64,000 bases of DNA from Candidatus Magasanikbacteria bacterium RIFCSPHIGHO2_01_FULL_41_23 (lineage in GTDB: Bacteria; Patescibacteriota; Patescibacteriia; Magasanikbacterales; UBA922). Location of the stretch: assembly GCA_001782805.1 (NCBI GenBank), contig MFPT01000002.1, positions 69,401-133,400 on the forward strand, read 5' to 3'. Below, one piece after another: positions 21,831 through 51,535 of this stretch. How positions within the stretch are numbered: position 1 is the stretch's first letter; the number at the start of each line of letters is the position of its first letter. The translations under genes and the position numbers were made by a program. The notes under the pieces are model-generated. The model was not told the origin of the DNA, searched no databases, and saw only the letters and a program-made list of their open reading frames with translations.

Positions 21831-21935
21831 GATTAAAATAAAAATGGAACGGATGTAGCTTTTTTGAGTCCGTCCCGGTCGGGCGGATCTCAGAAAAAGA
21901 TACGCAGTGAATTTTTATTTTAATTTCCTGACGTG
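21831..21935. repeat. about 100-nt long-hairpin repeat element (copy 1), between ribE and MITE copy B
   Basis: Ends taaaataaaaatgga ... gaatttttattttaatttcct are inverted repeats. Internal gctttttt / aaaaagata arms. Homologous to 50090-50190. Confidence 0.65.
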
Positions 21936-21947
21936 TTTATCGAATCG

Positions 21948-22535
21948 TTATTTCTTTAAAAACTTTTCAACATATTTCCCGATCACATCAACCTCCACAT
22001 TCACCAATTGCCCAACCGCAATATTTTTCCATGTTGTCCGTGCCATTGTTTCTTTAATCAAAGAAACTGTTACCAAATTCCCTTGCAATCGCGCCACAGT
22101 TAAACTAATTCCATCGAAAGTAATCGATCCATGAAGAATAACATATTTTTTTAATTTTGCCGGCAATTTAACGCCAACTAAAGTGGTTTTACCATCAAAT
22201 TCAACAAATACCACCGATGCAAGCGCATCAACATGACCTTGAACCATATGTCCGCCCAGCCGATCGCCCACGCGCAAAGCTAATTCCAAATTAAAATGAT
22301 CATTTTTTTTAAGCTTTACCAAAGTAGTCTTACGCTTTGTCTCCGGCATCACTTCAAACATCAAGTCGAACTTTAATTTCTTAACCAAAGTCAGGCAGAC
22401 GCCGCTGATAGAAACACTATCGCCCACTCTAATATGTCCAATCTTATTTTTTGGTTTAAGGCTAATATACGCACGCTCTTTTTTCTCAATTAAGCCAGTT
22501 ACAAGACCAACGGTTTGTACAATTCCCGTAAACAT
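21948..22535 (-). CDS. ribE: riboflavin synthase alpha subunit
   Basis: MFTGIVQ start, two lumazine-binding repeats (GDSVSISGVCLT / HGSITFDGISLT). The internal ATG at 22535 is the preferred start. Confidence 0.85.
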   Translation of the reverse strand: MFTGIVQTVGLVTGLIEKKERAYISLKPKNKIGHIRVGDSVSISGVCLTLVKKLKFDLMFEVMPETKRKTTLVKLKKNDHFNLELALRVGDRLGGHMVQGHVDALASVVFVEFDGKTTLVGVKLPAKLKKYVILHGSITFDGISLTVARLQGNLVTVSLIKETMARTTWKNIAVGQLVNVEVDVIGKYVEKFLKK

Positions 22536-22536
22536 A

Positions 22537-22902
22537 TTATTTTTTTCGTGCTGTTCGTTCGGCAAAAAATTCATTGACCAAACGGACATCAATCGCAATT
22601 TTTTCTTTTAACTCATCGACTGAATCATAGTGCTCTAACTGGCTCACTTTTTGAATAGGCGAAACACGAATCTCTTCACCATAAAAATCCGGTCCCGTAT
22701 AATTAATAAAATAAACCTCAACCTTCCACGGATTATCATTAATTACGAGAGCACCATAATAAACTGAATCCCGCAATACCGCTTCGGCCGCATACACGCC
22801 AACGGCAAATTTTACCTCTGTCGGATGAACATTAAGATTGGCCGTAGGATAACCCAGACCTCTGCCAAATCCATCACCCTGAACTACAATCCCGCGCAAC
22901 AT
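22537..22902 (-). CDS. riboflavin kinase (stand-alone RibF C-terminal domain)
   Basis: GFGRGLGYPTANL motif of the riboflavin kinase domain; 121 aa. Confidence 0.75.
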   Translation of the reverse strand: MLRGIVVQGDGFGRGLGYPTANLNVHPTEVKFAVGVYAAEAVLRDSVYYGALVINDNPWKVEVYFINYTGPDFYGEEIRVSPIQKVSQLEHYDSVDELKEKIAIDVRLVNEFFAERTARKK

Positions 22903-22903
22903 A

Positions 22904-24169
22904 TTATTTATTAAGTTTTTCCAGAGCCGCTTTTAAACCCTTGTCGATAAACGCATCAGACGAAGACGCAGTCATGCCCGGTTTTTGTTCAAACATTTTT
23001 TCAATGATCGTGTCCGGCTCAATTCCCTTGCCGTCAATTTCACGATTCAGCGGAGTCAGCCACTTGGCAATGGTTAACTTAAGAGCGGAGCCATCGGGCA
23101 ATGGTTCCACATCTTGCACCGAACCTTTGCCAAAAGTTTTTTTGCCCAATAATGTCGCGACTTTATAATCTTGCAATGCTCCGGCCACAATTTCCGCGGC
23201 CGAAGCCGTGCCTTCATCAACCAAGATTATCGTGGGAATAGCGCCGAATACATATGGACCACTCGTGCGAATATCACGCATTTGGGCATCGGAAGAACGT
23301 TCACGCAAAACTACTTTGTTGTCCAACCAAGCGCTAGCCACATAGACTGATTGATCCAAAATTCCGCCCGGATTACTCCGCAAATCCAAGACAATTCCCT
23401 GTGGTCGATTAAGCGTTCGGCGAATATCGCGCACCACGGCATCAAATTCCTGACTGGTTTTATCATTAAAATAACCAATCCGAATATAGGCGATATTCTT
23501 TTCTTCTTGTTTCCACGTCACACTAGGAACAATAATTGCCGCTCGCACAACAGAAACATCGTGCGTTTGTTTCGCTCCACTCGACAAAATAGTTAATTTA
23601 ACACTACTGGCTTTTGGGCCACGAATTTTCCCCACTGCTTCGCTCAGCGACAAGCCAAATGTTTCTTTATCATCAATCGCCACAATTACATCTTGCGGTT
23701 TTATTCCCGCGCGTTCAGCGGGCGAACCGGGAATTGGAGCAACCACAATAATTTGATCTTTTTGCATGCCGACTTCCATCCCCACACCTTCAAATTCACC
23801 GGACAATTCTTTCACAAATTCTTCGGCTTTAACCGGAGGAAAATACATTGAATACGGATCACCCAATCCGTTAACCATGCCTTGAATCGACGCGTAAAAA
23901 ATTTTTACATCGTCAACCGGCTGACCAACATATTTTTTCTTAATTTTATTCCAAACATCCCAATATTGATCAAAACTAACTTGAGGCGAACGAGTCCGAC
24001 TATAAAGATCAATCACGCGACTAATTTCCACTTTTTGACCGCTTCCCGTAATTTGCTCGCGCACTAAGCGTGATGTTCCTAACCACCAACCAGCCACAAA
24101 ACCAACCACAATAAGACAAAAAGTTTTTATATAGCGAGACAGGGCAGTCGTATTAGAATGAGATAACAT
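22904..24169 (-). CDS. ctpA: C-terminal processing peptidase (S41 family)
   Basis: PDZ domain plus the S41 catalytic region LDLRSNPGG; N-terminal TM anchor. Confidence 0.85.
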   Translation of the reverse strand: MLSHSNTTALSRYIKTFCLIVVGFVAGWWLGTSRLVREQITGSGQKVEISRVIDLYSRTRSPQVSFDQYWDVWNKIKKKYVGQPVDDVKIFYASIQGMVNGLGDPYSMYFPPVKAEEFVKELSGEFEGVGMEVGMQKDQIIVVAPIPGSPAERAGIKPQDVIVAIDDKETFGLSLSEAVGKIRGPKASSVKLTILSSGAKQTHDVSVVRAAIIVPSVTWKQEEKNIAYIRIGYFNDKTSQEFDAVVRDIRRTLNRPQGIVLDLRSNPGGILDQSVYVASAWLDNKVVLRERSSDAQMRDIRTSGPYVFGAIPTIILVDEGTASAAEIVAGALQDYKVATLLGKKTFGKGSVQDVEPLPDGSALKLTIAKWLTPLNREIDGKGIEPDTIIEKMFEQKPGMTASSSDAFIDKGLKAALEKLNK

Positions 24170-24170
24170 A

Positions 24171-25457
24171 TTATGATTGTGAACGAATTATTTTGGCTCC
24201 AAGACTCTGTAAAGTGGTTTCAATCATTGGATATCCGCGATCAATGTGCTCGACTGCTTCTACAGTAGTATTCCCATGAGCGATGAGGCCGGCCGCCACA
24301 TGAGCCATGCCTGCCCGCAAATCAGGGGCAAATAATTTTCCACCACGCAAAATGCTTGATCCATTCACAATCACGCGATGCGGATCGGCAATCACAATAT
24401 TCGCGCCCAGACCATTTAAATAATCCGCAAAAAACATTCTGCCCGGATACATTTTTTCAAAAAACAACATTGAACCTTTTACTTGAGTGGCGAGTACGAT
24501 CATCAAACTCATCATATCACTGGGAAAACAGGGCCATGGTTGGGAATAAATTCCTTTGGTTCTTGCCCAAACCGGATCAGTAATTTTTTTAGTTTGTCGA
24601 CTAGGCACAATTAAAACATTCTCTTGAAAATGCCAACGCGCGCCCAGCTTACCAAAAAAATATTCAAACGGTTTTATATCGGCCGCTGACACATTGCGAA
24701 TTTTAAGTTCTCCGCCCGTTATAATCGCGAGTACGATCATAGTTCCGATATAAATAAAATCCGGCGGCGTTGTTACCGTGGTGCCGGCTATTTTTTTTAC
24801 TCCTTCAATTATAAGTCTATTGGTTCCCGCCCCTTGAATTTTTGCACCCATTGAATTTAACATTTCCGCCAGTGCTCGGACATGCGGTTCAGCCGCCGCA
24901 TTATCCACCGTGGTTGTGCCCGACGTCAAAACCGCGGCCAGCATAACATTTTCTGTTGCCGTTACACTAGGTTCATACAAAAAAACCGATTGCCCGCGCA
25001 ATCGTCCTTTAAGGCAAAAAATATCGTCTGACAGAAAAGAAATATGAGCGCCGAGTTGGGATAAACCATCAAAATGCGCGTTCATTTCCCGCGGACCGAT
25101 TTTATCTCCGCCCGGTAAAGTGCTGGTGACTGTTCCAAAGCGCGCTAACAATGGCCCCAAAAGCGTATTGCTTGCCCGCAGTTTTTTCGCCAGTTCAGAT
25201 TTAATTACTGTTTTTTTAACACTAGCCGCGTTAATTTCCAATATTTTATTTTTTTTATCATGAATAACAGTCGCGCCCAAATCCTGTAAAATTTCCGCCA
25301 TAACCAAAACATCACTGATTGCCGGAACATTATTAATGATTACGGTTTCAGTGGTCAAGAGCGCAGCCGCCATCATTTTTAAGACTGCGTTTTTATTGCC
25401 GATTGGTTCGATTTCTCCATTGAGCGGTTGTCCGCCTTCAATCACGAATTTTGCCAT
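24171..25457 (-). CDS. murA: UDP-N-acetylglucosamine 1-carboxyvinyltransferase
   Basis: Full-length EPSP-synthase-fold MurA. Start at MAKFVIEGG (internal ATG). Confidence 0.9.
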   Translation of the reverse strand: MAKFVIEGGQPLNGEIEPIGNKNAVLKMMAAALLTTETVIINNVPAISDVLVMAEILQDLGATVIHDKKNKILEINAASVKKTVIKSELAKKLRASNTLLGPLLARFGTVTSTLPGGDKIGPREMNAHFDGLSQLGAHISFLSDDIFCLKGRLRGQSVFLYEPSVTATENVMLAAVLTSGTTTVDNAAAEPHVRALAEMLNSMGAKIQGAGTNRLIIEGVKKIAGTTVTTPPDFIYIGTMIVLAIITGGELKIRNVSAADIKPFEYFFGKLGARWHFQENVLIVPSRQTKKITDPVWARTKGIYSQPWPCFPSDMMSLMIVLATQVKGSMLFFEKMYPGRMFFADYLNGLGANIVIADPHRVIVNGSSILRGGKLFAPDLRAGMAHVAAGLIAHGNTTVEAVEHIDRGYPMIETTLQSLGAKIIRSQS

Positions 25458-25520
25458 AGTGTGGACAGATACAAATAATCTAGTATAATCATACTGCATT
25501 TATCCTCATTTGGCAATTGT

Positions 25521-26849
25521 ATGAAAACCCGTTCAAACGATCCGCTAATAACGCATCTAACCCAGTTTAAAAGACGTTTTATCATGATTTGTTTAATCAC
25601 TGTTTTTTTTGTTTTGTCACCCATGATTATTATGTACACGGCCGGCCTGCGCTTTAATTTTCAAACCAAAAAGCTAGAATCAACCGGAGCTTTAAATATT
25701 GATATAGAGCCCAAAAATGCTGATATATTGATAAATGATATTCGAATTACCCAAAGTATGCCGATCCGTCTAACCAGTTTAGTGCCCGGCACTTATCGAG
25801 TGAGCATCAGCCAAACGGGATTTCATTCATTAAAGAAAGATTTTTCCGTTCATTCGGGTGAAACAACGTATCTTAAAGATACTAATTTATTTAAAGTAAC
25901 TGAGCCGCAAAAAATCGCGAGACTTGATAATCCAATTACTAAGCTGTGGTTGAATGACTCGACAATTCCATTGATATACGGCTACTACAATGTGAGTAGC
26001 ACCCAATTCATGTTCAAAATATCCGGATCAGATTATTCGGAAACACCGTTGGCGTCTGAGGCAAATTTTTCTTGTTCGGCCAGCAAACGATATTGTGCCA
26101 TATTTACAAAAGCAGAAAATACCTTGACCATAATTGATACGCTTAATTCCGCCAATCAGCGTATAGTTACTGTGGCATCCAGTTCAAATCAGTTATTATG
26201 GAATCATTTTTACAAAAGTCCGCTTTTGTTTATTGGAACGAACAAAAAAATTACTCAACTGAATTCCAATTATTCTCTGACTGAACTAGCCGCACGTAAT
26301 GCTTCGATATGGTTTGTCGCGGATAATCAAACAGCCTGGATTTATAGTAGCGGAACAATTCAAAATCTGAACGATCCCAAACAAAACTTTAGTTTTAGCC
26401 ATAATCAATCATTAGAAGAAATTATTGATATCAGGAATGATTTTGCTTTGTTAAAAACAAGCAAAGATATTTTTTTGATTAAAAATCCGGGACAAACCAA
26501 TCAGACAGAAAAAAATATCGGAGCCGGAAAATGGGAGTATCATGCCCCAACCAAGGAATGGCGTCTGGTTTCGCCATGGGAAATTACGAGCATCTACAAC
26601 AATGGCGCGAGTACGGTTTTGTATCGAAGCGACTCAACAATTCAGTCAGCGCATTCATTGGACAAAAATGGCTTAATTTTAATTGTGGCGAATAATAAAT
26701 TAATTGCTTTTAATCCGGGCTATTATCTTAGTCAGGAATTGGCGGAATTTGAAACGATTGAAGCAGTTGATACTGACGAAAATGAGCGAATAATCGCCGT
26801 TGCCGGCACTTGGCGAGGTGAACGCGGGATATATACACTAGCGTATTAA
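25521..26849 (+). CDS. membrane-anchored hypothetical protein (possible PEGA-like domain)
   Basis: N-terminal TM helix. The rest of the 442-aa ORF has no clear family. Confidence 0.4.
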   Translation: MKTRSNDPLITHLTQFKRRFIMICLITVFFVLSPMIIMYTAGLRFNFQTKKLESTGALNIDIEPKNADILINDIRITQSMPIRLTSLVPGTYRVSISQTGFHSLKKDFSVHSGETTYLKDTNLFKVTEPQKIARLDNPITKLWLNDSTIPLIYGYYNVSSTQFMFKISGSDYSETPLASEANFSCSASKRYCAIFTKAENTLTIIDTLNSANQRIVTVASSSNQLLWNHFYKSPLLFIGTNKKITQLNSNYSLTELAARNASIWFVADNQTAWIYSSGTIQNLNDPKQNFSFSHNQSLEEIIDIRNDFALLKTSKDIFLIKNPGQTNQTEKNIGAGKWEYHAPTKEWRLVSPWEITSIYNNGASTVLYRSDSTIQSAHSLDKNGLILIVANNKLIAFNPGYYLSQELAEFETIEAVDTDENERIIAVAGTWRGERGIYTLAY

Positions 26850-27926
26850 TTATAATTCCACGATGGATTTGTCGCCCAAAATTAGCATGCTTGCTTCAGT
26901 CGCGCGCCGACGAATAGTGACTTTTTTACCAATTAAGCTGTGGGAAATATTTTCTTCACAATCAATGGCGCAATTGTCAAGGACAATGCTTTTGGTAATT
27001 TGGATGCCACTAAGCTCAGTCCCTTGCCCGACTGTTACGTAGGGACCAATTGTGCAATTTTCCAATACACAATTTTCACCAATAATAACCGGACCAATTA
27101 AGCGTACGCGATCGCCAACACGCGCGCCAATGCCAATGTGCACCACGCCCGAAATTTCGGCTGATCCAACTAATTCATCCGGCAATTCCCGTGATTCAAT
27201 TTTATCCAAAAGCAGTTGATTAACCAGCAGAAGATCTTCGTGCTTACCTGTATCTTTCCACCATCCGGTAATTTCTTTATGTCCAACACGACGACCGTCT
27301 TTCAAAAATAAAGAATGAATACTGGAAATTTCGTATTCGCCACGCGCGCTCTTGGTAATTTTATTGAATGCCTCAAAAAATAATTTTGGACCATATAAAT
27401 AAATTCCCGTAACCGCAAAATTATTCGGCGGATTGGCTGGTTTTTCATGCACATCAATCAGTTTTCCGGCCGAGTCAAAAATCGGCACACCAAAACGTTC
27501 CGGATCCGATACTTGTGACAGCGCGAGCAAACAATCAAAATCACCGCGATTAAATTCTTCCACCAATGGCTTTAAACTGCCCAATAAAATATTATCGGAC
27601 AAATAAAATAAAAAGGGTTCATCGCCAATAAATTGTTTGGCTTCGTTCACGACATGCGCAATTCCTTGCGGACCGCCCTTTTGTTCAAAAAATTTTATGC
27701 TAATCCCCCAATGCCCGCCATCACCGATATATTGCTCAAGTTCGGTTTCACCGGGATTCACATTAATAAAAATTTCTGTAATGCCGGCTTCGACCACTTT
27801 ATCAATGGCATGAAAAATCATGGGTTTATTTGCCAATGGCAAAAGATGTTTGTTAATGGTGGTTGTTATGGGATAGAGACGTGTCGCGCGACCACCTCCG
27901 GTTAAAATTGCTTTGCGTATTTTCAT
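26850..27926 (-). CDS. rmlA: glucose-1-phosphate thymidylyltransferase-like sugar nucleotidyltransferase (long form with LbH domain)
   Basis: AILTGGGRATRLYPIT nucleotidyltransferase motif and a C-terminal left-handed beta-helix hexapeptide region. Confidence 0.75.
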   Translation of the reverse strand: MKIRKAILTGGGRATRLYPITTTINKHLLPLANKPMIFHAIDKVVEAGITEIFINVNPGETELEQYIGDGGHWGISIKFFEQKGGPQGIAHVVNEAKQFIGDEPFLFYLSDNILLGSLKPLVEEFNRGDFDCLLALSQVSDPERFGVPIFDSAGKLIDVHEKPANPPNNFAVTGIYLYGPKLFFEAFNKITKSARGEYEISSIHSLFLKDGRRVGHKEITGWWKDTGKHEDLLLVNQLLLDKIESRELPDELVGSAEISGVVHIGIGARVGDRVRLIGPVIIGENCVLENCTIGPYVTVGQGTELSGIQITKSIVLDNCAIDCEENISHSLIGKKVTIRRRATEASMLILGDKSIVEL

Positions 27927-27949
27927 ATTATTGTACGAGCGATAAACTT

Positions 27950-29044
27950 TTACCACCAAATTAAAGTTTTAACAATCAGCCAATAATACGCCGTCATAAT
28001 AGGATTGCCAACATAATTGACGATTGGATTATCAGTCGATTTGTCTTGAAAATAAATTCCCGATGTGGCCAAATTAAGCAAATCACGATCGCGAATTTTC
28101 CGCATTGCCTGGATATGAGTGCGTTTCTTGAACCACAATTGCCAGCTCGATTTTTTAAGCCAATACGCATACACTTTTTTGCGCTCGTTCCACCAACCGC
28201 CTTTAAGGGCAAATAAAACTAATCCTAATTCAAGAATTAAAGCCATGGGCAACAGTAAAATTAAAGTTGGCCAACGAAAAAACATGAGCATGGTTCCATA
28301 ACGATTGCGTTCCATCCAAAAAAACTTGGAGATACTTCGGCTGAATTGATATTTATGATAAAAAACCGAATCGCGAACCAAGACTATTTTGTACCCAACC
28401 ATACGTAAACGAAATGACCATTCCAAATCTTCGTGATACATCCAAAAATCTTCATCCCACATCCCATACTGACGAATAGTAGCGGTACGAATAAGAAGGG
28501 CTGCTCCGCTCGCGTACGCGATTAATTTTTGCGGCGGCAAATTCAAATCTTTTAACTTATGCCGATATTCATTGCAAAAACCAAAACCCAAATAATGAAA
28601 CGCATTGCCCATACTATTAACCAACTCAGTTTCCGGATGCAAAAGCATGAGAGATTGCGCCGCGCCAATTTTGGGATTATTTTCCATTACTTGGACGATC
28701 GGCTCCAAACAATTGGCGGCCATAAAGCCGTCATTGTTATGGAAATACACATAATCAAAACCATTGTCCAAAGCCCAACGCGCACCCACATTATTGCCGG
28801 AACCAAAACCAAAATTTTCTTTTTGAGCTAAAAGTGTAACATGAGGAATTTCCCCGCCGGAAAGTGGGAAAATATTTTCTTCAATATATTTGACTGACGG
28901 CCCAAACTCCGGATGCGGATTGTCAACAATCACAAACTCCACTCGATCATGCGGATAGGTTAATTTTTTCAAGGATGAAACCACATCATCAATATATGGC
29001 TCGCAATGAAAAGATAAATAAATGATCGCGATTTTTGGTTGCAT
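27950..29044 (-). CDS. glycosyltransferase family 2
   Basis: N-terminal GT-A fold with IVDN and DxD motifs. C-terminal TM segments. Confidence 0.7.
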   Translation of the reverse strand: MQPKIAIIYLSFHCEPYIDDVVSSLKKLTYPHDRVEFVIVDNPHPEFGPSVKYIEENIFPLSGGEIPHVTLLAQKENFGFGSGNNVGARWALDNGFDYVYFHNNDGFMAANCLEPIVQVMENNPKIGAAQSLMLLHPETELVNSMGNAFHYLGFGFCNEYRHKLKDLNLPPQKLIAYASGAALLIRTATIRQYGMWDEDFWMYHEDLEWSFRLRMVGYKIVLVRDSVFYHKYQFSRSISKFFWMERNRYGTMLMFFRWPTLILLLPMALILELGLVLFALKGGWWNERKKVYAYWLKKSSWQLWFKKRTHIQAMRKIRDRDLLNLATSGIYFQDKSTDNPIVNYVGNPIMTAYYWLIVKTLIWW

Positions 29045-29050
29045 ATAAAA

Positions 29051-31781: not shown

Positions 31782-31889
31782 ATGATTTTTTACCCAAAAT
31801 AGTAAGCATCTGCCCATCTTTTATCACATAGACGACAACTGCCTTAATAAGTTGGGTTTCTTCTGCCATACTTCCTATGTAATTAAACG

Positions 31890-32480
31890 TTACGCCAAAC
31901 TAAAATTCCAAAATTCTTCGTGTTTCATCACAACATTAGTTAAAGCAGTAATATCTTCGTGAGTGCGTTTTTCCAGACTGTCAACTCTGCCTTCAAGGCG
32001 GTTAATATCCAGTCTTAATCGTGATTCAACTGAAGTAATCCGTTCTTGCAAGCTTTCTTCCACCATGTCTATTTTCGCGTCAAGACCAAAAATTATATTT
32101 GTGACATTTTCTTCGAGCGTCTTTATATCTTCTTTGGTCGCAAAATTCTTTAGGTCTTCTTTTGTGGCAAAATTTTTTAAATCATCTTTAGTGGCAAATT
32201 GAGTGGCAAATTCTTTTAAATCATCTTTAGTGGCAAAATTCCGAGCGTCTTCTTTTGTGAGAAAATCTTTGGCATCTTCCTTAGTAAGGAAACTTTTGGC
32301 ATCTTCTTTTGTCAAAAAACTTTTTGCGTCATCCTTGGTAAGAAAAAAAGTGGCGTCTTGTTTAGTTAAAAAATTGGCAACAAAAAATTCTTTAAAATCA
32401 ATTAAAAAACTCATTATCTCTTTGGGAGTAATCTCCTTGGTTGGCATATTAGAAAAAATAATCCCGATAGTGAAGCACAT
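31890..32480 (-). CDS. tandem nonapeptide-repeat protein with C-terminal coiled coil
   Basis: About ten FLTKEDAKS / FATKDDLKN repeats encoded by 27-bp tandem DNA repeats, followed by a coiled-coil tail. Start codon uncertain. Confidence 0.5.
   Translation of the reverse strand: MCFTIGIIFSNMPTKEITPKEIMSFLIDFKEFFVANFLTKQDATFFLTKDDAKSFLTKEDAKSFLTKEDAKDFLTKEDARNFATKDDLKEFATQFATKDDLKNFATKEDLKNFATKEDIKTLEENVTNIIFGLDAKIDMVEESLQERITSVESRLRLDINRLEGRVDSLEKRTHEDITALTNVVMKHEEFWNFSLA
32135..32385. repeat. 27-bp tandem repeat array (about 9-10 units) inside the repeat-protein CDS
   Basis: Direct reading shows repeated units such as tctttagtggcaaaatt...; both strands give periodic repeat ORFs. Confidence 0.8.
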
Positions 32481-33410: not shown

Positions 33411-33432
33411 AGCGAGTAAACTCTAATAAATA

Positions 33433-41812: not shown

Positions 41813-41830
41813 AAAACTACAATTACTCCG

Positions 41831-43099: not shown

Positions 43100-43165
43100 G
43101 CTCTAAAGTTATTAACAAGATGTTAACAAGATATTAACCAATGGTATATTGCCCAAAAATTCACA

Positions 43166-45952
43166 TTGCTCTATTATATAGAAACTAGTCAATTAACTCA
43201 AATTAAACTTGTGACTGATTTTACTCAAGTAGAGAAAATTCCACCCCAAAATCTGGAAGCCGAGATGTCGCTTTTGGGCGCGATTTTAATTGATAAAGAA
43301 GCTTTGCTTAAAATTGCGGATATTTTGGAACCGGATGATTTTTATAAACCCGCACATGCCGAAGTATATCAAGCCATTCTTGATCTGTATGCCAAAAGCG
43401 AGCCCGTGGATATTTTAACATTATCAAATCGTTTGGAAGAACGTGGAGTTTTGGAAAAAATCGGTGGCCGAAGTTTTGTCGTCAGTCTAGCCAACACTGT
43501 TCCCACGGCTTCGCATGTTAAACATTACGCGGATATTGTCGCCCGCAAAGCCACGTTACGCAAACTCATTGGCGCGGCCAGTGAAATTTCTCGTTTGGGT
43601 TTTACGGAAGATTCCGATGAAATTGAAATGCTCCTTGATAAAGCCCAACAGCATGTCTTTAGCGTAACGCAAAAACATATTAAACAAACCTTCACGCCCA
43701 TTCGCGGAATTTTAAGCGAAGCCTTTGATCGGATTGATGAATTGCATCGCGACAAAGGCAAATTGCGCGGCGTGCCCACCGGATTTCGGGAATTGGACAA
43801 TATCTTGGCCGGTTTGCAAAAATCCGATTTGATTATTTTAGCGGCGCGGCCATCGGTCGGAAAAACTTCACTCGCGCTCGACATTGCGCGTCACGTAGCG
43901 ATTCGCGAAAAAGTGCCCGTGGGAATTTTTTCTTTGGAAATGAGCAAAGAACAATTTGTGGATCGTCTGCTGTGTGCCGAAGCCGGCGTGGATTTATGGA
44001 AAATGCGCACAGGCAATCTTTCTGATCGGCCAGATAGTGATGATTTTCCGCGCATTGGTCATGCCATGGGTGTTTTGTCCGAAGCCCCCATTTATATAGA
44101 TGATTTTCCGGGCAACAATGTAATGCAAATTCGCACCAAAGCGCGTCGTCTCAAATCCGAACATGGTCTTGGTCTTATTATTATTGATTACATGCAGTTA
44201 ATGGAATCGCATAATAATAAATACTCGGAAAATCGTGTCCAAGAAGTTTCTGAAATGAGCCGTAATTTAAAAGGGATTGCGCGTGAACTAAATGTGCCGG
44301 TTTTGGCATTGTCGCAATTATCTCGTGCGGTGGAACAAACCAAACCAGCCATTCCCAAATTGTCGCACTTACGTGAATCAGGATGTTTAACCGGAGACAC
44401 GATTATCATTCGGGCTGATACTGGCGAACCAGTCCGGCTCATTGATATTGTCACCGGTAAGATTCCAACCCCTTTACCTATATTTGCCCTCGACGAGAAC
44501 TGGAAAATCTCCCCACAAATAATGACTAAAGCCTTTTCCTCTGGTCAAAAAAAGGTATTTGAAATGCGTTTGCGAAGCGGGCGCACCATTCGCGCCTCAG
44601 CCAATCATCCATTCCGTACACTTGGAGGCTGGACAAACTTAGAAGATTTATGTCCTGGTATGCGTATTGCAGTCCCTCGTGTTTTGACACCACAAAAACC
44701 CACCAATCTTATGAACTTGGATGAGCTCGCATTACTGGCACATCTCTTGGGCGACGGATGCACAGTACCACGACAGCCAATTCATTATACCAGTGCTGAT
44801 CCGGAAAATTTAGCGGTAGTAGAGCAAACCGCTATAAAATTATTTAACATAAAACCGCGTCGAGTCAAGCAAAAAAATTGGTGGCATGTGTATCTTCCTT
44901 CACCCTACCACCTCACTCATGGAAAACATCATCCCATTACTAACTGGTTTTCGCAGTTAGGTATCGGTCTACGACACTCTTATAAAAAGGAAATACCACT
45001 TCAAGTATTCCAATCAGACAGCTCCCATATCGCGCACTTCCTCCGCCATCTATGGGCCACTGACGGTAATATTTCCTGGAAATTTATACTAGGTAGAAAA
45101 CCAGCCGGAGCAATTTATTACTCTAGCACTAGCACGGTGTTGGCAAGACAAGTCCAGCATTTACTTACTCGTTTAGGTATATTCTCAACATTACGCCTCG
45201 TGCCGCAAGGCGATCATCGACCAGCGCACCAAGTTCATGTCCAAGGAAGTACCAATCAAAAAACATTTCTTTCAGTGGTTGGTTCGGCAGGCAGTCGTGG
45301 TGATATTGTACCGGCTATGCTTACCGCCCTTCAAGAAATAACAGCAAACCCAAACCGTGACACTATTCCTCACGAGATCTGGAATAGTACCATTGAAGAA
45401 GCGAGAACCGAAGCCAATATCAGTTGGAGAGAATTATACCGCCAACTAGACAATTCTTATGCTGGTACCGTTAAGCAAAATTCTGTGGGTAGAGAACGAC
45501 TCGGTCGAATCGCAGTGGCCCTCAAAAGCAAACCATTGCAACTACTCGCCGACTCTAGTATTTTTTGGGACGAAATTGAATCCATCGTATCTCAAGGTAT
45601 GGAAGAAGTGTACGATGCCACCGTACCCAGATTTCACAATTTTGTCGCCAATGACATTATTGTCCATAATAGTATCGAACAAGACGCGGATGTGGTATTA
45701 TTCATCTATCGCAAAGCCGCGGATCGCAATTATCGTTTGGAAGATATTCCGCCGGATGAACGTCATCTGGGAGAAATTCACGTGGCCAAACATCGCAATG
45801 GTCCCACTGGCATGGCTAAAGTTTTTTTTGATGAAACGCGCGCGAGTTATCGTAATTTAGATACGCGGTATGTTCCGCCAACAGGCGGAGGACAATCGCA
45901 TGCTCCAGCCAATCTACCCAAACCAGGATCAGTCAATGTGCCAAGTTTTTAA
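43166..45952 (+). CDS. dnaB: replicative DNA helicase DnaB, interrupted by an in-frame intein
   Basis: Conserved DnaB N-terminal domain, Walker A ARPSVGKTSLAL, Walker B IIIDYMQL. The helicase sequence ...HLRESG / SIEQDADVV... is split by a 429-aa insertion. Confidence 0.9.
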   Translation: MLYYIETSQLTQIKLVTDFTQVEKIPPQNLEAEMSLLGAILIDKEALLKIADILEPDDFYKPAHAEVYQAILDLYAKSEPVDILTLSNRLEERGVLEKIGGRSFVVSLANTVPTASHVKHYADIVARKATLRKLIGAASEISRLGFTEDSDEIEMLLDKAQQHVFSVTQKHIKQTFTPIRGILSEAFDRIDELHRDKGKLRGVPTGFRELDNILAGLQKSDLIILAARPSVGKTSLALDIARHVAIREKVPVGIFSLEMSKEQFVDRLLCAEAGVDLWKMRTGNLSDRPDSDDFPRIGHAMGVLSEAPIYIDDFPGNNVMQIRTKARRLKSEHGLGLIIIDYMQLMESHNNKYSENRVQEVSEMSRNLKGIARELNVPVLALSQLSRAVEQTKPAIPKLSHLRESGCLTGDTIIIRADTGEPVRLIDIVTGKIPTPLPIFALDENWKISPQIMTKAFSSGQKKVFEMRLRSGRTIRASANHPFRTLGGWTNLEDLCPGMRIAVPRVLTPQKPTNLMNLDELALLAHLLGDGCTVPRQPIHYTSADPENLAVVEQTAIKLFNIKPRRVKQKNWWHVYLPSPYHLTHGKHHPITNWFSQLGIGLRHSYKKEIPLQVFQSDSSHIAHFLRHLWATDGNISWKFILGRKPAGAIYYSSTSTVLARQVQHLLTRLGIFSTLRLVPQGDHRPAHQVHVQGSTNQKTFLSVVGSAGSRGDIVPAMLTALQEITANPNRDTIPHEIWNSTIEEARTEANISWRELYRQLDNSYAGTVKQNSVGRERLGRIAVALKSKPLQLLADSSIFWDEIESIVSQGMEEVYDATVPRFHNFVANDIIVHNSIEQDADVVLFIYRKAADRNYRLEDIPPDERHLGEIHVAKHRNGPTGMAKVFFDETRASYRNLDTRYVPPTGGGQSHAPANLPKPGSVNVPSF
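44384..45670 (+). mobile_element. DnaB intein with LAGLIDADG-type homing endonuclease domain
   Basis: Begins with Cys (CLTGDTII) and ends ...IVHN followed by Ser. LLAHLLGDGC is a LAGLIDADG block. Sits at the canonical DnaB intein site between RESG and SIEQDAD. 1287 nt and in frame. Confidence 0.85.
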
Positions 45953-45996
45953 TTTAAAAATGAGAAAATATATATTTTCTAAAAATTTAATAAAAT

Positions 45997-46299
45997 ATGT
46001 TTAATAAATTAAAACAATTCAAAGATTTACGCGACAAAGCCAAAGATTTGCAAAATACACTGTCCAAAGAATCAGTTACTGTTGAGGCTGTTGGCGGAAA
46101 AATAAAACTCACGATGGACGGTAATTTAACACTGGCTAAAATTTTCATTGATCCAGAATTATTATCGCCCAGTAAAAAAGAAAAATTGGAAGCAGGCGTA
46201 AAAGAAGCACACGCTGACGCCATGAAAAAAATGCAGCGCATCATGGCCATGAAAATGAAAGACATGGGTGGACTGCCGAATATTCCGGGATTAAATTAA
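45997..46299 (+). CDS. ybaB: YbaB/EbfC family nucleoid-associated protein
   Basis: 100-aa protein with the conserved MQKMQ..M region, upstream of recR. Confidence 0.8.
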   Translation: MFNKLKQFKDLRDKAKDLQNTLSKESVTVEAVGGKIKLTMDGNLTLAKIFIDPELLSPSKKEKLEAGVKEAHADAMKKMQRIMAMKMKDMGGLPNIPGLN

Positions 46300-46300
46300 T

Positions 46301-46903
46301 GTGTACTCCAAGCCAATCGAAAATTTAGTGCGCGCGTTTATGCGCTTGCCGTCAGTCGGTCGTAGAACTGCCGAACGTTTTGTCTTTTATTTATTAAAAG
46401 CCGGCAAAAAAGATCCGGCGGAATTGGCGCTCGCAATTAAAACCTTAATTGCTTCGGTTAAAAGTTGCGCGATTTGTTTTGATTTTTCCGATCGTTCGCC
46501 TTGTGTGATTTGCGCTGATAAAAATCGCGACACCACTGTAATTTGTGTCGTAGCCGAACCGCAGGATGTGCAAGCAGTGGAAAGAATCGGTTCGTATCGC
46601 GGACACTATCACATTCTACGCGGACTAGTGCCGTTGGATGCAATCGCAGTTGATGAATCAATTTTAAAAATTCCCGAATTAATAACACGCGTGGAAAAGC
46701 AATTAATTAGCGAAGTAATTATCGCGCTCAATCCGGATTTGCCCGGCGAAACGACAGCCATGTATATTGAAAAATTACTGAAAGAAAAAAACGCTCAATT
46801 AAAAATCACTCGTCTCGCGCGCGGTCTCCCTATGGGCAGTGATTTGCAATATGCCGATGAAATAACTTTGGCGAGCGCGTTGAAAAATAGAACTACAGTA
46901 TAG
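46301..46903 (+). CDS. recR: recombination protein RecR
   Basis: N-terminal HhH (LPSVGRRTAERF), C4 zinc finger (CAICFDFSDRSPCVIC), Toprim domain. Confidence 0.9.
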   Translation: MYSKPIENLVRAFMRLPSVGRRTAERFVFYLLKAGKKDPAELALAIKTLIASVKSCAICFDFSDRSPCVICADKNRDTTVICVVAEPQDVQAVERIGSYRGHYHILRGLVPLDAIAVDESILKIPELITRVEKQLISEVIIALNPDLPGETTAMYIEKLLKEKNAQLKITRLARGLPMGSDLQYADEITLASALKNRTTV

Positions 46904-47055
46904 GTATGAATGATAAATTTACGATCTTTAACAAACAAACTACTACGATTGGTAGTAAAATTATGCTAAATTATTTAAACAATAAAGTCAATAAATGCCA
47001 TCAATCGTAAAATAAAAAATCCCCCGCCATTCGAAAGATTTTTTATGTCAGAATT

Positions 47056-47553
47056 TTATTGGTAACTTTTTACCGGAGCTGTTTTTGGCTGATTGAATTT
47101 CATCCCCCGTTTCATCTGTGGCCTAATTTTCATTTTTTCGCCCATTTTATTTTTCATTTCTTGCATAACAGTAAACCGCGCGTCAGCTTGAGCTTGGGTA
47201 ATATAACCCTTGTTTACCAAACTCTGCAATTCTAATTTAATTTTCGCTTCGGCCGCCGATTGCATTTTTGTTTTTAATTGTTCTTGCGTAATGCCTTTTT
47301 CCAATGCAATGTCTTGAATATTTTTTCCTTGCACCCAATATGTTTTCATTTCGTCAACCGAAATTCCCAGCAAAGACGCGTTTTGATTCATTTGTTCAGC
47401 CCATTTATCCGGGTCGGCCACACCTCCACCAAACCCTCTAAACCCGTGTAACCCTTTTGCTCCCATACCTGACGCGGAAACCGATCCGACTCCAATCAGA
47501 CCGGCAAGCACGAAGGCAGGAATAACCAAAAGATATTTTTTCTGAAACTTCAT
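47056..47553 (-). CDS. secreted LTXXQ-motif protein (Spy/CpxP-like periplasmic stress chaperone family)
   Basis: Signal peptide. ITQEQL and ITQAQA LTXXQ-like motifs. Downstream of the ECF sigma / anti-sigma pair on the same strand. Confidence 0.45.
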   Translation of the reverse strand: MKFQKKYLLVIPAFVLAGLIGVGSVSASGMGAKGLHGFRGFGGGVADPDKWAEQMNQNASLLGISVDEMKTYWVQGKNIQDIALEKGITQEQLKTKMQSAAEAKIKLELQSLVNKGYITQAQADARFTVMQEMKNKMGEKMKIRPQMKRGMKFNQPKTAPVKSYQ

Positions 47554-47611
47554 AGAAATAAAAGTTAATAAATTAATCAGCTGATATATTTAATACAAAT
47601 GATTTGATTTT

Positions 47612-48352
47612 TTATTTCACTTTTGGAACGAATTCCGGTATTGATCGGCGGATATGCGGCCGCAACACACGCAAATCCTTTGGCCGAGCCAGCTTAATAT
47701 GGCTGGCAAAAAATTCCACTCCTTGCCACTGTCCAACCGCGATAATAAAAACTCCCAGCTCTGGCTGGCGTAAATCGCGTCGCCAATTGACATTTGACGT
47801 GTTAACCATAATATCCGACCGTGGACTGCGCACAATTAAAATATTTTCCCTAACCGCAACCACTTGTCCGGCAATGCCTCTGCCGTGTTCGCCCAATCTA
47901 AAATGCATGAATGATTTCATGTATCGTTTGCTCGATATTTTTTCTCCCAAATTTGCGAAAGCAAAAATTGAACCACTGAAAAAAATTATCACCAGCACGA
48001 TAATGGACAATTTCCCAAACGAATACGCGTACGCACGTCCGGTCAAACTCAACAATCTGCCGGCCAAAAAAATCAAGAGAATGAGTGTAATAACGGGCTG
48101 AAACGGAAACGATTCCAGAAAAGCCCAAATACCCGAATTTCCAAATTCCAAATAATTTCGCGAGTCAGCGGAAACAAAATAAAATAATACAACGGTAAAT
48201 GCCAATGCCGCGAGCAAAACCGTTAAAACCACAGCGCTGCCCAAGCCTAATTTTTCCGACAAAAATAAATAGCGGGAACGAAGTTTTACTTTGCCGCTTT
48301 TAATATCAGCTATGATTATGTTCTCCAGATTGTGCATCTTTTTTTCTTCCAT
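47612..48352 (-). CDS. membrane protein, putative anti-sigma factor
   Basis: Immediately downstream of the ECF sigma gene (3-bp gap). Cytoplasmic N-terminus, several TM helices, C-terminal extracytoplasmic domain. Assignment is by position only. Confidence 0.4.
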   Translation of the reverse strand: MEEKKMHNLENIIIADIKSGKVKLRSRYLFLSEKLGLGSAVVLTVLLAALAFTVVLFYFVSADSRNYLEFGNSGIWAFLESFPFQPVITLILLIFLAGRLLSLTGRAYAYSFGKLSIIVLVIIFFSGSIFAFANLGEKISSKRYMKSFMHFRLGEHGRGIAGQVVAVRENILIVRSPRSDIMVNTSNVNWRRDLRQPELGVFIIAVGQWQGVEFFASHIKLARPKDLRVLRPHIRRSIPEFVPKVK

Positions 48353-48355
48353 ATA

Positions 48356-48907
48356 TTATTCCTGCATAATTATCTTGAGTTTTGTCTTGCCGCGAGCAAT
48401 CAGAGTCCCAACCGTGCTCACCGGCACATGCAAAATGTCACTGATTTCTTCGTATGACTTTTCTTCAAAAAAATAAAGAACAACTGGCTCGCGATATTTT
48501 TCTTTTAATTTTTGCAACGCGCGACGGATGCGTAAGGCTCCTTCTTTTTTATCTATGGAAATGCCCAGTTCCAAACGGTCATCAGCTATTTCCCATTCAC
48601 CTTCATCCAAGATCAAGGCCTCGCGCTTGAATTTTTTGCAATGATTAATGGCTTCATTATGCGCGATGCGGTAAATCCAGGATGAAAATGATCGATTGGC
48701 GTCAAAATCGAATAAATTACGATAGGCTTTAATGAATACATCCTGAAGAATATCCTCATTCGCGGTTTCACTTGTCGTAAATCGGCGGATATAACGAGTC
48801 AATTTGGCTTGATATCGTCTAATGATTTCACCATAAAGTTCGGATTCACCGTTTCGCACCAAAACTAATATTGCTTCGTCGCTCTGATTGTTGCTCGTTT
48901 CAGGCAT
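48356..48907 (-). CDS. RNA polymerase sigma-70 factor, ECF subfamily
   Basis: Region 2 (DVFIKAYRNLFDFD...FSSWIYRIAHNEAINHCKK) and region 4 HTH (SYEEISDILHVPVSTVGTLIARGK). Confidence 0.85.
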   Translation of the reverse strand: MPETSNNQSDEAILVLVRNGESELYGEIIRRYQAKLTRYIRRFTTSETANEDILQDVFIKAYRNLFDFDANRSFSSWIYRIAHNEAINHCKKFKREALILDEGEWEIADDRLELGISIDKKEGALRIRRALQKLKEKYREPVVLYFFEEKSYEEISDILHVPVSTVGTLIARGKTKLKIIMQE

Positions 48908-49052
48908 ATTCTATAGTACACTCCTTTGGCTGATTTATTTCAAATAAACTTAAAGAATCCATCCAAAAGAACCTATTCTTATTGACAAAAAATGATAAAA
49001 TAATTATTCTTACGAACAGTCTAGCGCAATCAACAGCGCTACGAGGTTAGAA

Positions 49053-49961
49053 ATGGACGGAATTCCGGTTTTGGACATGTCTGAGTTCGGGGCTCATCCC
49101 GAACAGGACAAGCGTATCGCCGACTTGATCGGCGAGAACGCGAGAACGCTCAGCTTCATGGCCATCACTGGCCACGGAGTCGAAAACTCGCTCATCAACG
49201 ACGCGTTCGAGGCCATGCGCCAGGTCTTTCAGACCGGCATGACCGAGACGGAACGTCTCCACTACGAGTTCCCCGAGATCGGGCGTCAGGTGGGCTACAC
49301 GCCACCCGACACCGAACAATCGGTGGGACACGCGCTCAAGAACCGCATGCGCTTCTGGCACGTCATGGATCCCAAGTGCGGAATCCGGAACGTGTTCCCC
49401 AGCGAGGTTCTGGAGTTCGAGCGTGTCATGCTGGATCTGCATGCTGCGCTCAAGGGATTCGCGGCCAAAGTGCTCCGAGCCGTGGCCATCCATCTCGGCC
49501 GCGACCCCGAGTTCTTCGTCCGCTGGATCGAGGATGGCGCGAACCTGCTCCGCCCCATCCACTACCCGGCCCTGAACGGCGATGAGAATGTGGAACGCTC
49601 GGGCTCTCACACCGACATCAACCTCATCACCATCCTCGCGCCGGCCACTGTTCCAGGTCTCCGAGTAATGGGACCGGACGGCCAGTGGATCGACGCCAAC
49701 AACCCGCCCGGCACGCTCATCGTCAACTTCGGGGACATGATGCACATGCACACGTTCGGCGAGTTGAAGACGACTCTCCACGAAGTGCACAATCCGGGAA
49801 CCGCGTGCCCGGATCGGTACTCCATCCCCATCTTCATCCACCCGAACGGTCGGCGCATGCTCGTGGGTACCCAAGCCTACCTGCTCCGTCGCCTTCGTCA
49901 GATCAAGCTCATCGGAGAGCTCCCGCCGAACCAGATCGACTACCAGGACATCGAGTCCTAG
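49053..49961 (+). CDS. 2-oxoglutarate/Fe(II)-dependent oxygenase (isopenicillin N synthase-like superfamily), GC-rich foreign gene
   Basis: HTD...H facial triad (SGSHTDINL ... HEVHNPG). About 62% GC against about 38% flanks. ORFs on the other strands of this region are composition artefacts. Confidence 0.7.
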   Translation: MDGIPVLDMSEFGAHPEQDKRIADLIGENARTLSFMAITGHGVENSLINDAFEAMRQVFQTGMTETERLHYEFPEIGRQVGYTPPDTEQSVGHALKNRMRFWHVMDPKCGIRNVFPSEVLEFERVMLDLHAALKGFAAKVLRAVAIHLGRDPEFFVRWIEDGANLLRPIHYPALNGDENVERSGSHTDINLITILAPATVPGLRVMGPDGQWIDANNPPGTLIVNFGDMMHMHTFGELKTTLHEVHNPGTACPDRYSIPIFIHPNGRRMLVGTQAYLLRRLRQIKLIGELPPNQIDYQDIES

Positions 49962-50089
49962 TAGCGCCCACCCCCCAATCCCACCAATCGGGCGACAACC
50001 AAAACTATGTCACCCAACCCTTATTTCTAAAGTTTGGAAATAGAGGTTGGAGGAAACGACATAGTTTTTGTTTTATTAAAATGTATTTA

Positions 50090-50190
50090 CTAAAATAAAA
50101 ATGGACTGGATATAACTTTTTTGGGCACGGAATTTATGACGTGATCCAGAAAAAGTTATGCAAGGAATTTTTATTTTAATTTCCTTAATG
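50090..50190. repeat. about 100-nt long-hairpin repeat element (copy 2), between the GC-rich oxygenase gene and rplU
   Basis: Same conserved ends as copy 1. Central stem differs but stays partly complementary (ataactttttt / aaaaagttat). Confidence 0.65.
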
Positions 50191-50197
50191 TATTATT

Positions 50198-50231
50198 AAA
50201 AAAATCCTCGTTTGATGCAAGGATTTTTTAT
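50198..50231 (-). terminator. Rho-independent terminator downstream of rplU
   Basis: aaaaaaatcctcg..caaggatttttt hairpin with flanking A/T runs, so possibly bidirectional. Confidence 0.5.
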
Positions 50232-50242
50232 TATATTTTATT

Positions 50243-50554
50243 TTAAACTTTGATAACTTTCACTTTGGTGAAATGCTGCCGATGACCAATCGTTCTCTTA
50301 TAACGAACTTTGCGTTTATATTTAACCACTAAAATTTTCTTAGCACGCCCTTGTTCCGCCACAATGGCCTCAACCGTAACACCCTCCAAATACGGAGCGC
50401 CAATTTTAACATCCGTCCCATCATCTTCAGCCGTCAGCATTACTTTATCAAAAATAATAATACCGTTAACTTCGGCCGGAAGTTTTTCCACTTTTAAGGC
50501 ATCGCCACTTTTAACCAAATATTGCTTACCACCTGTTTCAATAACTGCGAACAT
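50243..50554 (-). CDS. rplU: 50S ribosomal protein L21
   Basis: MFAVIETGGKQYLVKSGDALKVEKL is the canonical L21 N-terminus; 103 aa. Confidence 0.9.
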   Translation of the reverse strand: MFAVIETGGKQYLVKSGDALKVEKLPAEVNGIIIFDKVMLTAEDDGTDVKIGAPYLEGVTVEAIVAEQGRAKKILVVKYKRKVRYKRTIGHRQHFTKVKVIKV

Positions 50555-50628
50555 ATAAATAAATTAAGCCAAATAAATCTAAAATTAGGAATGAGCGGAT
50601 TATACGCAAATGCTTCAAAATTGTCAAG

Positions 50629-51108
50629 CTAAGGATCCCCAACAATTTCCAATCTATCTCCAATCTTCAAATCATATTTTTCAACCCATCCAGCCTCCAA
50701 TTCCAAAACCAAATTGGCTGACTTACGTGGAATATAACGTCGCAGTTCTGTTTCTTTAATATCTAGTTCAGTTGGAACATTGGGCGCAATATCCACCACT
50801 TCGCCGTTCAAAAACCACACGATATCAATGGGAAAAAGCGTATCGCGCATCACAAATCCGTATTTGTTGGGAACGGCAAACACAAATAACATTCCATCAT
50901 AAGGAGCAAGTGCTGTTCTGCCACCAAGACCTTTGTAATGCCGATACGGATTATCTGCCACCAAAACTTTCAGTGACGTATCTTTTAAAATTACCGTTGT
51001 CTTAGGCCAATAAAATTTATAAGCTTGGACACTAATAAAACCAATTAAAAAAATTACTACAATAATTTTGAAATGTCGAATTGAACGTTCTTTATTTATT
51101 TCTGACAT
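50629..51108 (-). CDS. DUF192 domain protein (membrane-anchored)
   Basis: N-terminal TM helix, then the DUF192 core (FPIDIVWFLNGEVVDI...). Confidence 0.6.
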   Translation of the reverse strand: MSEINKERSIRHFKIIVVIFLIGFISVQAYKFYWPKTTVILKDTSLKVLVADNPYRHYKGLGGRTALAPYDGMLFVFAVPNKYGFVMRDTLFPIDIVWFLNGEVVDIAPNVPTELDIKETELRRYIPRKSANLVLELEAGWVEKYDLKIGDRLEIVGDP

Positions 51109-51150
51109 ATTTCAATAATATTTACTCCAATTCATAAAAAAATAGTCTTT

Positions 51151-51330
51151 ACTCCCTCGTAATCAAACTCCGTTTTCTAAGTCTAAAGCAAAATTCAACG
51201 ATATCCTTTTGTTCAACTGATAGTCTAACGGATTATGCATTCTAAACAAGTCATTATACTCAGCTTTCAGCAAAAGTATATTCGTCTCCATTTTGCTTAT
51301 TAGTATATTGGATGTTTGGGTGTTGCATTA
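51151..51330 (-). repeat. MITE-like repeat, copy C (degenerate ends), upstream of DUF192 gene
   Basis: Same core as copy B (caactgatagtctaacggattatgcattctaaacaagtcattatactcagctttc) and the same downstream block attagtatattggatgttt. Confidence 0.7.
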
Positions 51331-51344
51331 GGTGTTGCCTTTGT

Positions 51345-51535
51345 GGGTAATTTCAGTAGTGGGTAATTTTATTTTTCAGTAATGTGTATGAGCATCCTTT
51401 CTACTGGCTTGGTTAGAGTAGATTAGATGTCAATAAAGCATAGACTGGGAGGGTAAAAGAATAGCGAGTTTTACTGAAAAAGAAAATTATCTACTACTGA
51501 AATTCATGTTGATTTAAATTGAGTTGATTTATTTT
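51345..51535. repeat. degenerate long-hairpin element upstream of MITE copy C
   Basis: Long-range inverted repeats tttcagtagt / actactgaaa and ttttcagtaatg / ttactgaaaa. Ends with ttttaatttcct, as in the other hairpin elements. Confidence 0.4.

Follow-up and report, generated by a model that had tools for sequence, protein, structure and literature searches.

Genomic context of the family-2 repeats

The window analyzed here is a stretch of 64,000 nucleotides from Candidatus Magasanikbacteria bacterium RIFCSPHIGHO2_01_FULL_41_23 (GenBank assembly GCA_001782805.1, contig MFPT01000002.1, positions 69,401 to 133,400). It carries two copies of a non-coding palindromic repeat, referred to below as family 2, together with copies of two other hairpin families, family 1 and family 3 (Table 1). 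Family-2 copy A lies between two minus-strand genes, ribE (riboflavin synthase) and ribH (lumazine synthase). Along the minus strand, the ribE stop codon (21948) is followed by 18 nt, family 2, a gap of 17-26 nt, a copy of family 1 and the ribH start codon. Copy B is located between two convergent genes, that of a 2OG-Fe(II) oxygenase (plus strand, ending at 49961) and rplU (minus strand, ending at 50243). An earlier reading of the letters alone (the sequence-only reading) had placed the repeats at gene 3′ ends or between convergent genes, two of its three copies next to family 1; the position holds for both copies, and the short gap confirms the adjacency for copy A.

Two further hairpins stand beside copy B, one behind each of the convergent genes. 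Neither was called by the terminator consensus scan. The one adjoining copy B looks by eye like a conventional bidirectional terminator, probably rplU's own.

Table 1. Coordinates of family-2 copies, of copies of families 1 and 3, and of neighboring hairpins. Locations are window positions unless a contig (L number) is given.
Feature	Location	Strand	Gene context	Remarks
Family 2, copy A	21825-21937	+	ribE / ribH	Profile envelope; hairpin proper 21831-21925; outer stem 21833-21845 / 21911-21923
Family 2, copy B	50082-50194	+	2OG oxygenase / rplU	Hairpin about 50090-50180; identical in six strain contigs
Family 2	L057 10671-10782		After adk, inside secY-adk-map region	
Family 2	L059 (= L039) 10951-11065		After trxB (trxB/PMT_2)	
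Family 2	L059 (= L039) 15864-15971		Between tyrosine-recombinase gene (xerD, Phage_integrase family) and tRNA-Arg	
Family 2	L061 (= L036) 11469-11581		Between pilin genes	
Family 2	L061 (= L036) 13139-13251			20-nt insertion, truncated end
Family 2	L037 7256-7367		Between alaS and gtrA	
Family 1	11599-11852	+	Upstream of glyA	Contains perfect hairpin 11652-11709
Family 1	21636-21814	-	Upstream of ribH	Long imperfect palindrome AATCAAACTGGA...GAAGTTTGATT
Family 1	51154-51333	-	Upstream of DUF192 gene	
Family 1	55730-55903	-	Upstream of 119-aa open reading frame	Preceded by short hairpin with A-/T-runs (about 55928-55965)
Family 1	L057 9799-9987			
Family 1	L057 16351-16492	-		
Family 1	L057 16501-16682			
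Family 1	L057 19074-19230			
Family 1	L061 553-745			
Family 1	L061 9820-9965			
Family 3, long hairpin	51345-51543	-		Arms 51349-51382 / 51471-51504, 34 nt, 91% complementary
Separate hairpin + T-run	49997-50067	+	3′ of 2OG-Fe(II) oxygenase gene	Terminator-like by eye; no family-2 member
Short hairpin between A-run and T-run	50198-50235		Directly after rplU stop, adjoining copy B	Seen by eye

Sequence and predicted fold of the window copies

The extents of copies A and B were obtained with a profile from eight copies, which detected no further full copy in the 64-kb window. The two copies share TAAAATAAAAATGGA and GAATTTTTATTTTAATTTCCT exactly, and ATTTTTATTTTAATTTCCT is present unchanged in both. 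The outer stem of copy A is a perfect 13-bp inverted repeat, TTAAAATAAAAAT at 21833-21845 with ATTTTTATTTTAA at 21911-21923. This terminal repeat is unchanged in six of the eight copies; the exceptions are one copy with a single compensated base change (L039b) and one with a truncated right end (L036b). The sequence-only reading had described copies at 21831-21935 and 50090-50190 whose shared ends are inverted repeats and whose inner arms diverge yet remain complementary. Exact matches confirmed the former, alignment and pairing the latter.

Each copy forms a single interrupted hairpin of about 45 bp, and either strand can form it. The predicted free energy is −39.5 (plus strand) and −29.1 (minus strand) kcal/mol for copy A, and −27.9 and −22.5 kcal/mol, respectively, for copy B. 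The folding check that had been proposed for these positions gave a clear result: both strands of both copies were far more stable than shuffled sequence (z from −4.0 to −5.0; 0 of 200 shuffles as stable). The hairpin is set between an A-tract and a T-tract on both strands. Neither copy contains a meaningful open reading frame (ORF), and a non-coding element of ~113 nt with a 13-bp terminal inverted repeat has the size (below about 500 bp) and architecture of a miniature inverted-repeat transposable element (MITE).

Across 20,474 bases, one extra T at the right boundary of copy A (21929/21930) is all that distinguishes the window and contig L031. This boundary variant reads TTTCCT/GACG against TTTCCTT/GACG when the window is compared with L031 and L032.

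Further copies in the same species

The other family-2 loci (L numbers) lie on contigs of the same species from the Ca. Magasanikbacteria Rifle groundwater set of metagenome-assembled genomes; ~142 kb was examined in all. Exact protein matches to the window were found in ENA contig k141_2517225 (131.7 kb) and in GCA_001782895.1 and GCA_001784325.1. A metagenome scan with a two-ended pattern returned three real loci and one chance match, and profile searches added the rest. This gave eight full family-2 loci, six of them beyond the window, where the sequence-only reading had held that a lack of additional copies, together with no read-through drop, would suggest a coincidental duplication. The copies at ribE/ribH (copy A), at trxB/PMT_2 (L039/L059) and after adk (L032/L057) show 100% identity, which extends to the loop, and have unrelated flanks; this indicates recent copying.

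That just two full copies occur in 64 kb would agree with an inconsequential duplication, whether coincidental or segmental. Coincidence is nevertheless excluded, because the 19-mer end motif is expected only 0.33 times by chance in the window and six further full copies exist; these lie in unrelated flanks, three copies are identical, and the variation is compensatory. We therefore give this explanation practically no weight.

Several metagenome contigs (L045, L046, L041 and L032) terminate at the repeats, as expected for multi-copy DNA. The repeats explain contig breaks in the Rifle assemblies and are usable as strain markers. A scan of 185k species genomes in GTDB with the 20-mer AATTTTTATTTTAATTTCCT yielded 30 loci, none of which has the left end, all being coding matches or matches by chance; the source species seemingly lies outside this collection. 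The IMG/VR scan for family 2 gave 0 matches.

The copy after adk has a different setting in one assembly. JGI contig C687J35504_10001249 (L032 1-1650) joins the adk region (family 1, adk, family 2) to an NTP-transferase gene, at window position 27907, unlike the NCBI assembly, which has adk in the ribosomal-protein/secY cluster. Either the JGI contig reflects a rearrangement in that strain or it was assembled as a chimera.

Stem conservation and covariation

The covariation alignment comprised eight rows representing six distinct variants, since three rows are identical elements. RNAalifold predicted 34 pairs. Stem cells were paired in 97.4% of cases compared with 90.1% in shuffles (0 of 500 as high), double-sided changes occurred in nine pairs (3 of 500 shuffles), and the covariation score was 0.233 compared with 0.106 in shuffles (0 of 500). 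When the 3′ partners were slid by 1-3 columns, pairing fell to 36-54% and nearly all double changes vanished. No sequence variation affects the outer stem or the inner stem CTTTTTTG...CAGAAAAAG, in contrast to the apical 20-25 nt, which vary freely among copies. As far as the aligned variants go, they show that the ends and CTTTTTTG...CAGAAAAAG are conserved in sequence and the remaining stem as base pairing alone.

The fold is asymmetric between strands. Conserved G.U/G.T wobbles stabilize the TTAAAATAAAAATGGA-first strand by 4-9 kcal/mol over its complement in each of the six variants; these wobbles are shared by inheritance and do not represent independent events.

Significant stem covariation and strand-asymmetric G.U wobbles would also be displayed by a multi-copy structured small RNA gene or a cis-regulatory RNA. 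However, Rfam 15 gave 0 matches at gathering score in the window, with chance-level hits alone at E ≤ 10 (21560-21960), and the consensus scan associated no promoter-like site with family 2. The neighbors are functionally unrelated (ribE, rplU, adk, alaS, trxB, xerD/tRNA, pilins), gene orientation is mixed, and the family was not found in relatives. Three 100% identical copies are, moreover, unexpected for old paralogous RNA genes. We regard an RNA gene or RNA regulator as improbable.

Insertion into short intergenic spacers

Two relatives, L048 and L049, retain the gene order CtpB-flavokinase-ribE-ribH, with RibH identities of 63% and 60%, respectively. In both, the ribE stop and the ribH start are 1 nt apart (TAATATG). 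The same spacer in the window measures 361 nt and holds family 2 and family 1, with both genes intact. Likewise, NUDIX and glyA are 66 nt apart in L049 and 470 nt apart in the window. Families 1 and 2 were undetectable in L048 and L049. Judged by this sequence comparison, the 361-nt ribE-ribH block and the enlarged NUDIX-glyA spacer are lineage-specific insertions, because the spacers of the relatives are short and the two families were detected neither in these relatives nor in GTDB genomes or IMG/VR.

Filled sites at eight loci and an empty ribE-ribH site in two syntenic relatives are the pattern of dispersed copies expected for a MITE. They show that family 2 spread by insertion into very short spacers after stop codons. 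It often adjoins families 1 and 3, resulting in composite blocks.

Families 1 and 3

Family 1 consists of an imperfect palindrome of 150-250 nt followed by one or two GAAGTTTGATTAAGACTTAG boxes. Nine of its ten copies aim at the start codon of unrelated genes (glyA, ribH, DUF192, adk, recO, rsmB, pilin). The start codon 3′ of the element always follows TA (TATG), and AATATG is found in three of six aligned copies. A 57-nt core distinguishes the long from the short form of the family. By eye, family 1 has a conserved TATAnT and no consistent −35 element.

Family 3 is a hairpin of 150-190 nt (ATTTCAGTAGTAGGTAATTTTCTTTTCAGTAA...), always located directly upstream of family 1. Its window copy overlaps the stop codon of a MraY-like gene and runs straight into family 1. 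Homologues are present at L036 5564-5767 (82% identity), L057 9625-9800 and 18920-19080, and probably at L061 367-553. Families 3 and 1 behave as one composite repeat of about 350-400 nt.

The sequence-only reading had connected two of these hairpins with family 2, and neither is a member. The proposed degenerate third copy at 51345-51535 is a real hairpin, but the eight-copy profile misses it, the part shared with family 2 is a 16-nt tail, TTTATTTTAATTTCCT, and it belongs to family 3, with its own homologues in the same genome. The perfect hairpin at 11652-11709, which had been linked to family 2 through an arm motif, scored only E = 0.43 with the family-2 profile. It aligns as the core of family 1 in its short form, which is also found at L036 5453-5545 and L057 16351-16492.

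An arm motif, TCTTTTTC / GAAAAAGA, was compared across all hairpin families, and 5 of the 11 GAAAAAGA sites in the window fall in repeats. The shared motif is suggestive, not decisive, of a common ancestry of the hairpin families. A small palindrome, CCGACANGTCGG, was considered as a REP-like unit and rejected, as it is not dispersed. An additional hairpin of 169 nt, with 41-nt arms that are 90% complementary, directly follows the PMT_2 gene at L039 5963-6131 (= L059 about 12651-12819). Its arm TTAAATTAGCTAAAATTTTTGAGT is loosely like the family-2 arm, so that it may represent a fourth related family.

Two observations concern the immediate surroundings of these repeats. A long-range inverted repeat, GGTTGTCATCATGTCAGTCAG ... 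CTGACTGACATGAATGCCAACC, occupies 11447-11602 in the enlarged NUDIX-glyA spacer, where an 84-aa ORF of doubtful status (11384-11638) overlaps it; folding of 11381-11650 gave a z-score of −3.3. In L061, about 13 consecutive genes with T4SS_pilin domains (1677-12469) have copies of families 1, 2 and 3 between some of them.

Possible terminator function

In bidirectional intrinsic (Rho-independent) terminators, which follow stop codons or separate convergent genes, an A-tract and a T-tract enclose a hairpin whose stem usually measures 5-15 bp. Family 2 could accordingly be a dedicated terminator of this type, or a hairpin protecting RNA 3′ ends, repeated by duplication or gene conversion, with family 1 as the matching promoter or leader module. 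The symmetry of A-tract, hairpin and T-tract on both strands agrees with this explanation, as do the start of each copy 0-18 nt past a stop codon and the direction of nine of ten family-1 copies toward a downstream gene start. Furthermore, three gene blocks are bracketed by family 1 (5′) and family 2 (3′): DUF192-rplU (window 51333..50082), adk (L057 9799..10782) and two pilin genes (L036 5588..3827).

Several features do not fit a dedicated terminator. In the folds, the strong stem stops 5-9 nt short of the T-run instead of forming a G+C-rich stem within 0-2 nt of the U-run. The family-2 stem is ~45 bp long with internal loops, its near-identical sequence occurs at unrelated genes, and it is inserted within ancestral operons. 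Sigma-70 promoter and terminator consensus scans found nothing inside families 1 or 2, including copies A and B. Copy B would be redundant beside the apparent rplU terminator. In five cases the genes on both sides of the copy run in the same direction and, in relatives, are operonic or tightly linked (e.g., ribE-ribH). In 5/8 copies, moreover, the strand that folds better is antisense to its gene neighbors.

The promoter half of the explanation meets a similar difficulty. A perfect TTGACA-17-TATAAT promoter lies upstream of rplU (50599-50627, minus strand), and the organism therefore uses canonical sigma-70 promoters; family 1 nevertheless has no conserved promoter of this kind. Consequently, ribH would depend on read-through. 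A terminator module would in any case have needed insertion to reach an ancestrally empty site. A dedicated terminator with its matching leader is, in our judgment, possible but not likely.

Orientation and strand

Relative to the flanking genes, five of the eight copies are AGGAAATT-first and three are reversed. With respect to GC skew, by contrast, orientation is uniform, the better-folding TTAAAATAAAAATGGA-first strand being the C-rich strand in 8/8 copies. This uniformity is suggestive only, as the skew is weak around both L059 copies (−0.02 to −0.05) and confounded with gene direction. Should the bias prove general, a single-strand mechanism linked to replication would be indicated.

Comparison with known systems

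A close parallel is found in the REPINs of, e.g., Pseudomonas fluorescens SBW25, hairpins formed by doublets of repetitive extragenic palindromic (REP) sequences and mobilized by REP-associated tyrosine transposases (RAYTs), which combine two conserved inverted ends with a less conserved spacer in which compensatory changes keep the hairpin (PMC3116915). Like them, family 2 is an extragenic, non-coding, multi-copy hairpin of ~100 nt, sometimes clustered with other repeats. It also has conserved inverted ends and a compensated hairpin, and neither system exhibits an obvious target-site duplication. In contrast to the G+C-rich REP palindromes, the arms of family 2 are A/T-rich, with no self-palindrome beyond an A5/T6 run. 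In the REP-RAYT system, each arm includes a REP palindrome of 20-40 bp, which bears a tag, defined in PMC3733652 as GTAG or CGTC. Family 2 has neither a conserved GTAG/CGTC end tag nor such a palindrome. The host is a member of the Candidate Phyla Radiation (CPR), not a proteobacterium, and the ~142 kb examined contained no RAYT (Y1 transposase), whereas the REP-RAYT system has a single-copy RAYT gene flanked by the repeats. We thus describe family 2 as REPIN-like in its working and not as a member, because it lacks the REP-specific features and a RAYT is missing from these loci.

Correia elements (CREE/NEMIS) of Neisseria, ERIC/IRU, RUP and the RPEs of Rickettsia are terminal-inverted-repeat elements of 100-160 bp that lack ORFs and lie near genes. 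Transcribed together with adjacent genes, repeats of the Correia type form long hairpins and can be cut by RNase III or work as promoters or terminators. In Correia elements, an IHF site is present and the target TA is duplicated. The architecture of family 2 is alike, but the sequences are unrelated, no target duplication could be defined for family 2, and its copy number is much lower (tens by extrapolation compared with hundreds for Correia).

Palindrome-associated elements derived from IS200/IS605 transpose as single strands and have two different subterminal hairpins. Family 2 shares with them strand-asymmetric hairpin DNA, an apparent lack of target duplication, similar short sequences on the left of the copies (TTGAT, TTCAT, TGGAT, TTTAC) and a seemingly uniform orientation relative to the replication strands. 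It differs in being one long palindrome, in that its better-folding strand is C-rich by skew and not the lagging-strand template, and in that no TnpA was found.

Conserved ends, a variable center and strand-specific folding would also be compatible with a recombination site folded from one strand, either integron attC-like or recognized by a tyrosine recombinase, and one copy does lie between a Phage_integrase-family gene and tRNA-Arg. However, that is the only recombinase neighbor among the eight copies. The aligned ends lack the R''/R' core sites (RYYYAAC / GTTRRRY), no integron integrase or cassette array is present around the window copies, and the adjoining genes are housekeeping genes in conserved order. 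This explanation is very improbable.

Proposed mode of spread

We consider with moderate confidence that one Ca. Magasanikbacteria species carries in family 2 a repeat of the MITE/REPIN kind, ~113 nt long, palindromic, non-coding, dispersed and lineage-specific. The sequence-only reading had offered "structured terminators or a second MITE family"; it is the second half that gained support, from at least eight copies, three of them identical in different contexts, the empty ribE-ribH site and the compensatory changes. The kind of miniature mobile DNA is familiar, but the family itself was matched in no database or literature searched.

Several observations weigh against a mobile repeat. No target-site duplication can be defined: flanks are alike across copies (left ..TGTATTGAT, right TAATGTATT) and not duplicated within a copy. 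Copy B is flanked by an 8-nt direct repeat, AATGTATT, but the same motif occurs beside other copies, while others have no repeat at all. At the ribE/ribH block, a possible AAATAA repeat has too high an A/T content to be judged as a duplication. Pfam gene tables of the ~142 kb contain no transposase, either DDE or Y1/RAYT, such as a parent insertion sequence with the same ends would carry. The relatives with the empty site are distant, and the block they lack is a two-family composite, not family 2 alone. Contigs covering the two window copies are all identical, without insertion polymorphism between strains. The covariation signal comes from just six independent variants. Finally, the bracketing of three gene blocks by families 1 and 2 would also fit selected promoter-leader and terminator modules.

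If family 2 is a mobile repeat of this kind, it would have moved in trans, because it lacks coding capacity, and probably as a single-strand hairpin. Its pattern of conservation would result from selection by a mobilizing protein that acts on the folded strand, which has been proposed for REPINs. In a transcript, the long hairpin between A-tract and U-tract would probably act as a partial bidirectional terminator, an RNA 3′-end stabilizer or an RNase III site; such an effect is plausible.

A more specific scheme can be put forward only tentatively, and we think it rather unlikely. A putative, possibly domesticated transposase would copy family 2, as a REPIN-like element, from its folded single strand, with the orientation locked to one replication strand (8/8). 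Family 2 would form with families 3 and 1 portable hairpin-plus-leader cassettes that split ancestral operons of a streamlined CPR genome, between ribE and ribH and on either side of adk in the secY-adk-map region. If true, no such system would have been described in the CPR before. Literature searches for MITE or REPIN repeats in CPR/Patescibacteria found nothing relevant.

Genomes of CPR/Patescibacteria are small and tightly packed. Here, at least three interrelated palindromic families lie within gene orders that relatives keep contiguous, and have expanded spacers of 1-66 nt to 360-470 nt. Operons would be rewired if the elements terminate or process transcripts, and mobilization as single strands would imply an unrecognized transposase in the lineage. 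The interest of the system lies chiefly in its CPR host, in three nested palindromic families splitting ancestral operons and in the possible replication-strand bias.

Other features of the window

At 49047-49961, next to copy B, public annotation gives an ORF of 275 aa on the minus strand, without a Pfam hit. The overlapping 302-aa ORF on the plus strand matches 2OG-Fe(II) oxygenase (E = 1.4e-16) and DIOX_N, and the deposited call is thus probably on the wrong strand. The tRNA/tmRNA scan of the whole window returned none. Inside the minus-strand ORF 31890-32480, which encodes a 196-aa protein of unknown function, positions 32095-32366 comprise about ten tandem 27-nt units (9-aa repeats).

The DnaB gene (43166-45952, plus strand) encodes 928 aa with a LAGLIDADG-domain intein. 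An intein-less DnaB of 479 aa (L042 926-2365) is present in another strain contig that shares an identical neighboring glycosyltransferase, and a third contig carries a 778-aa form (L043 72-2408).

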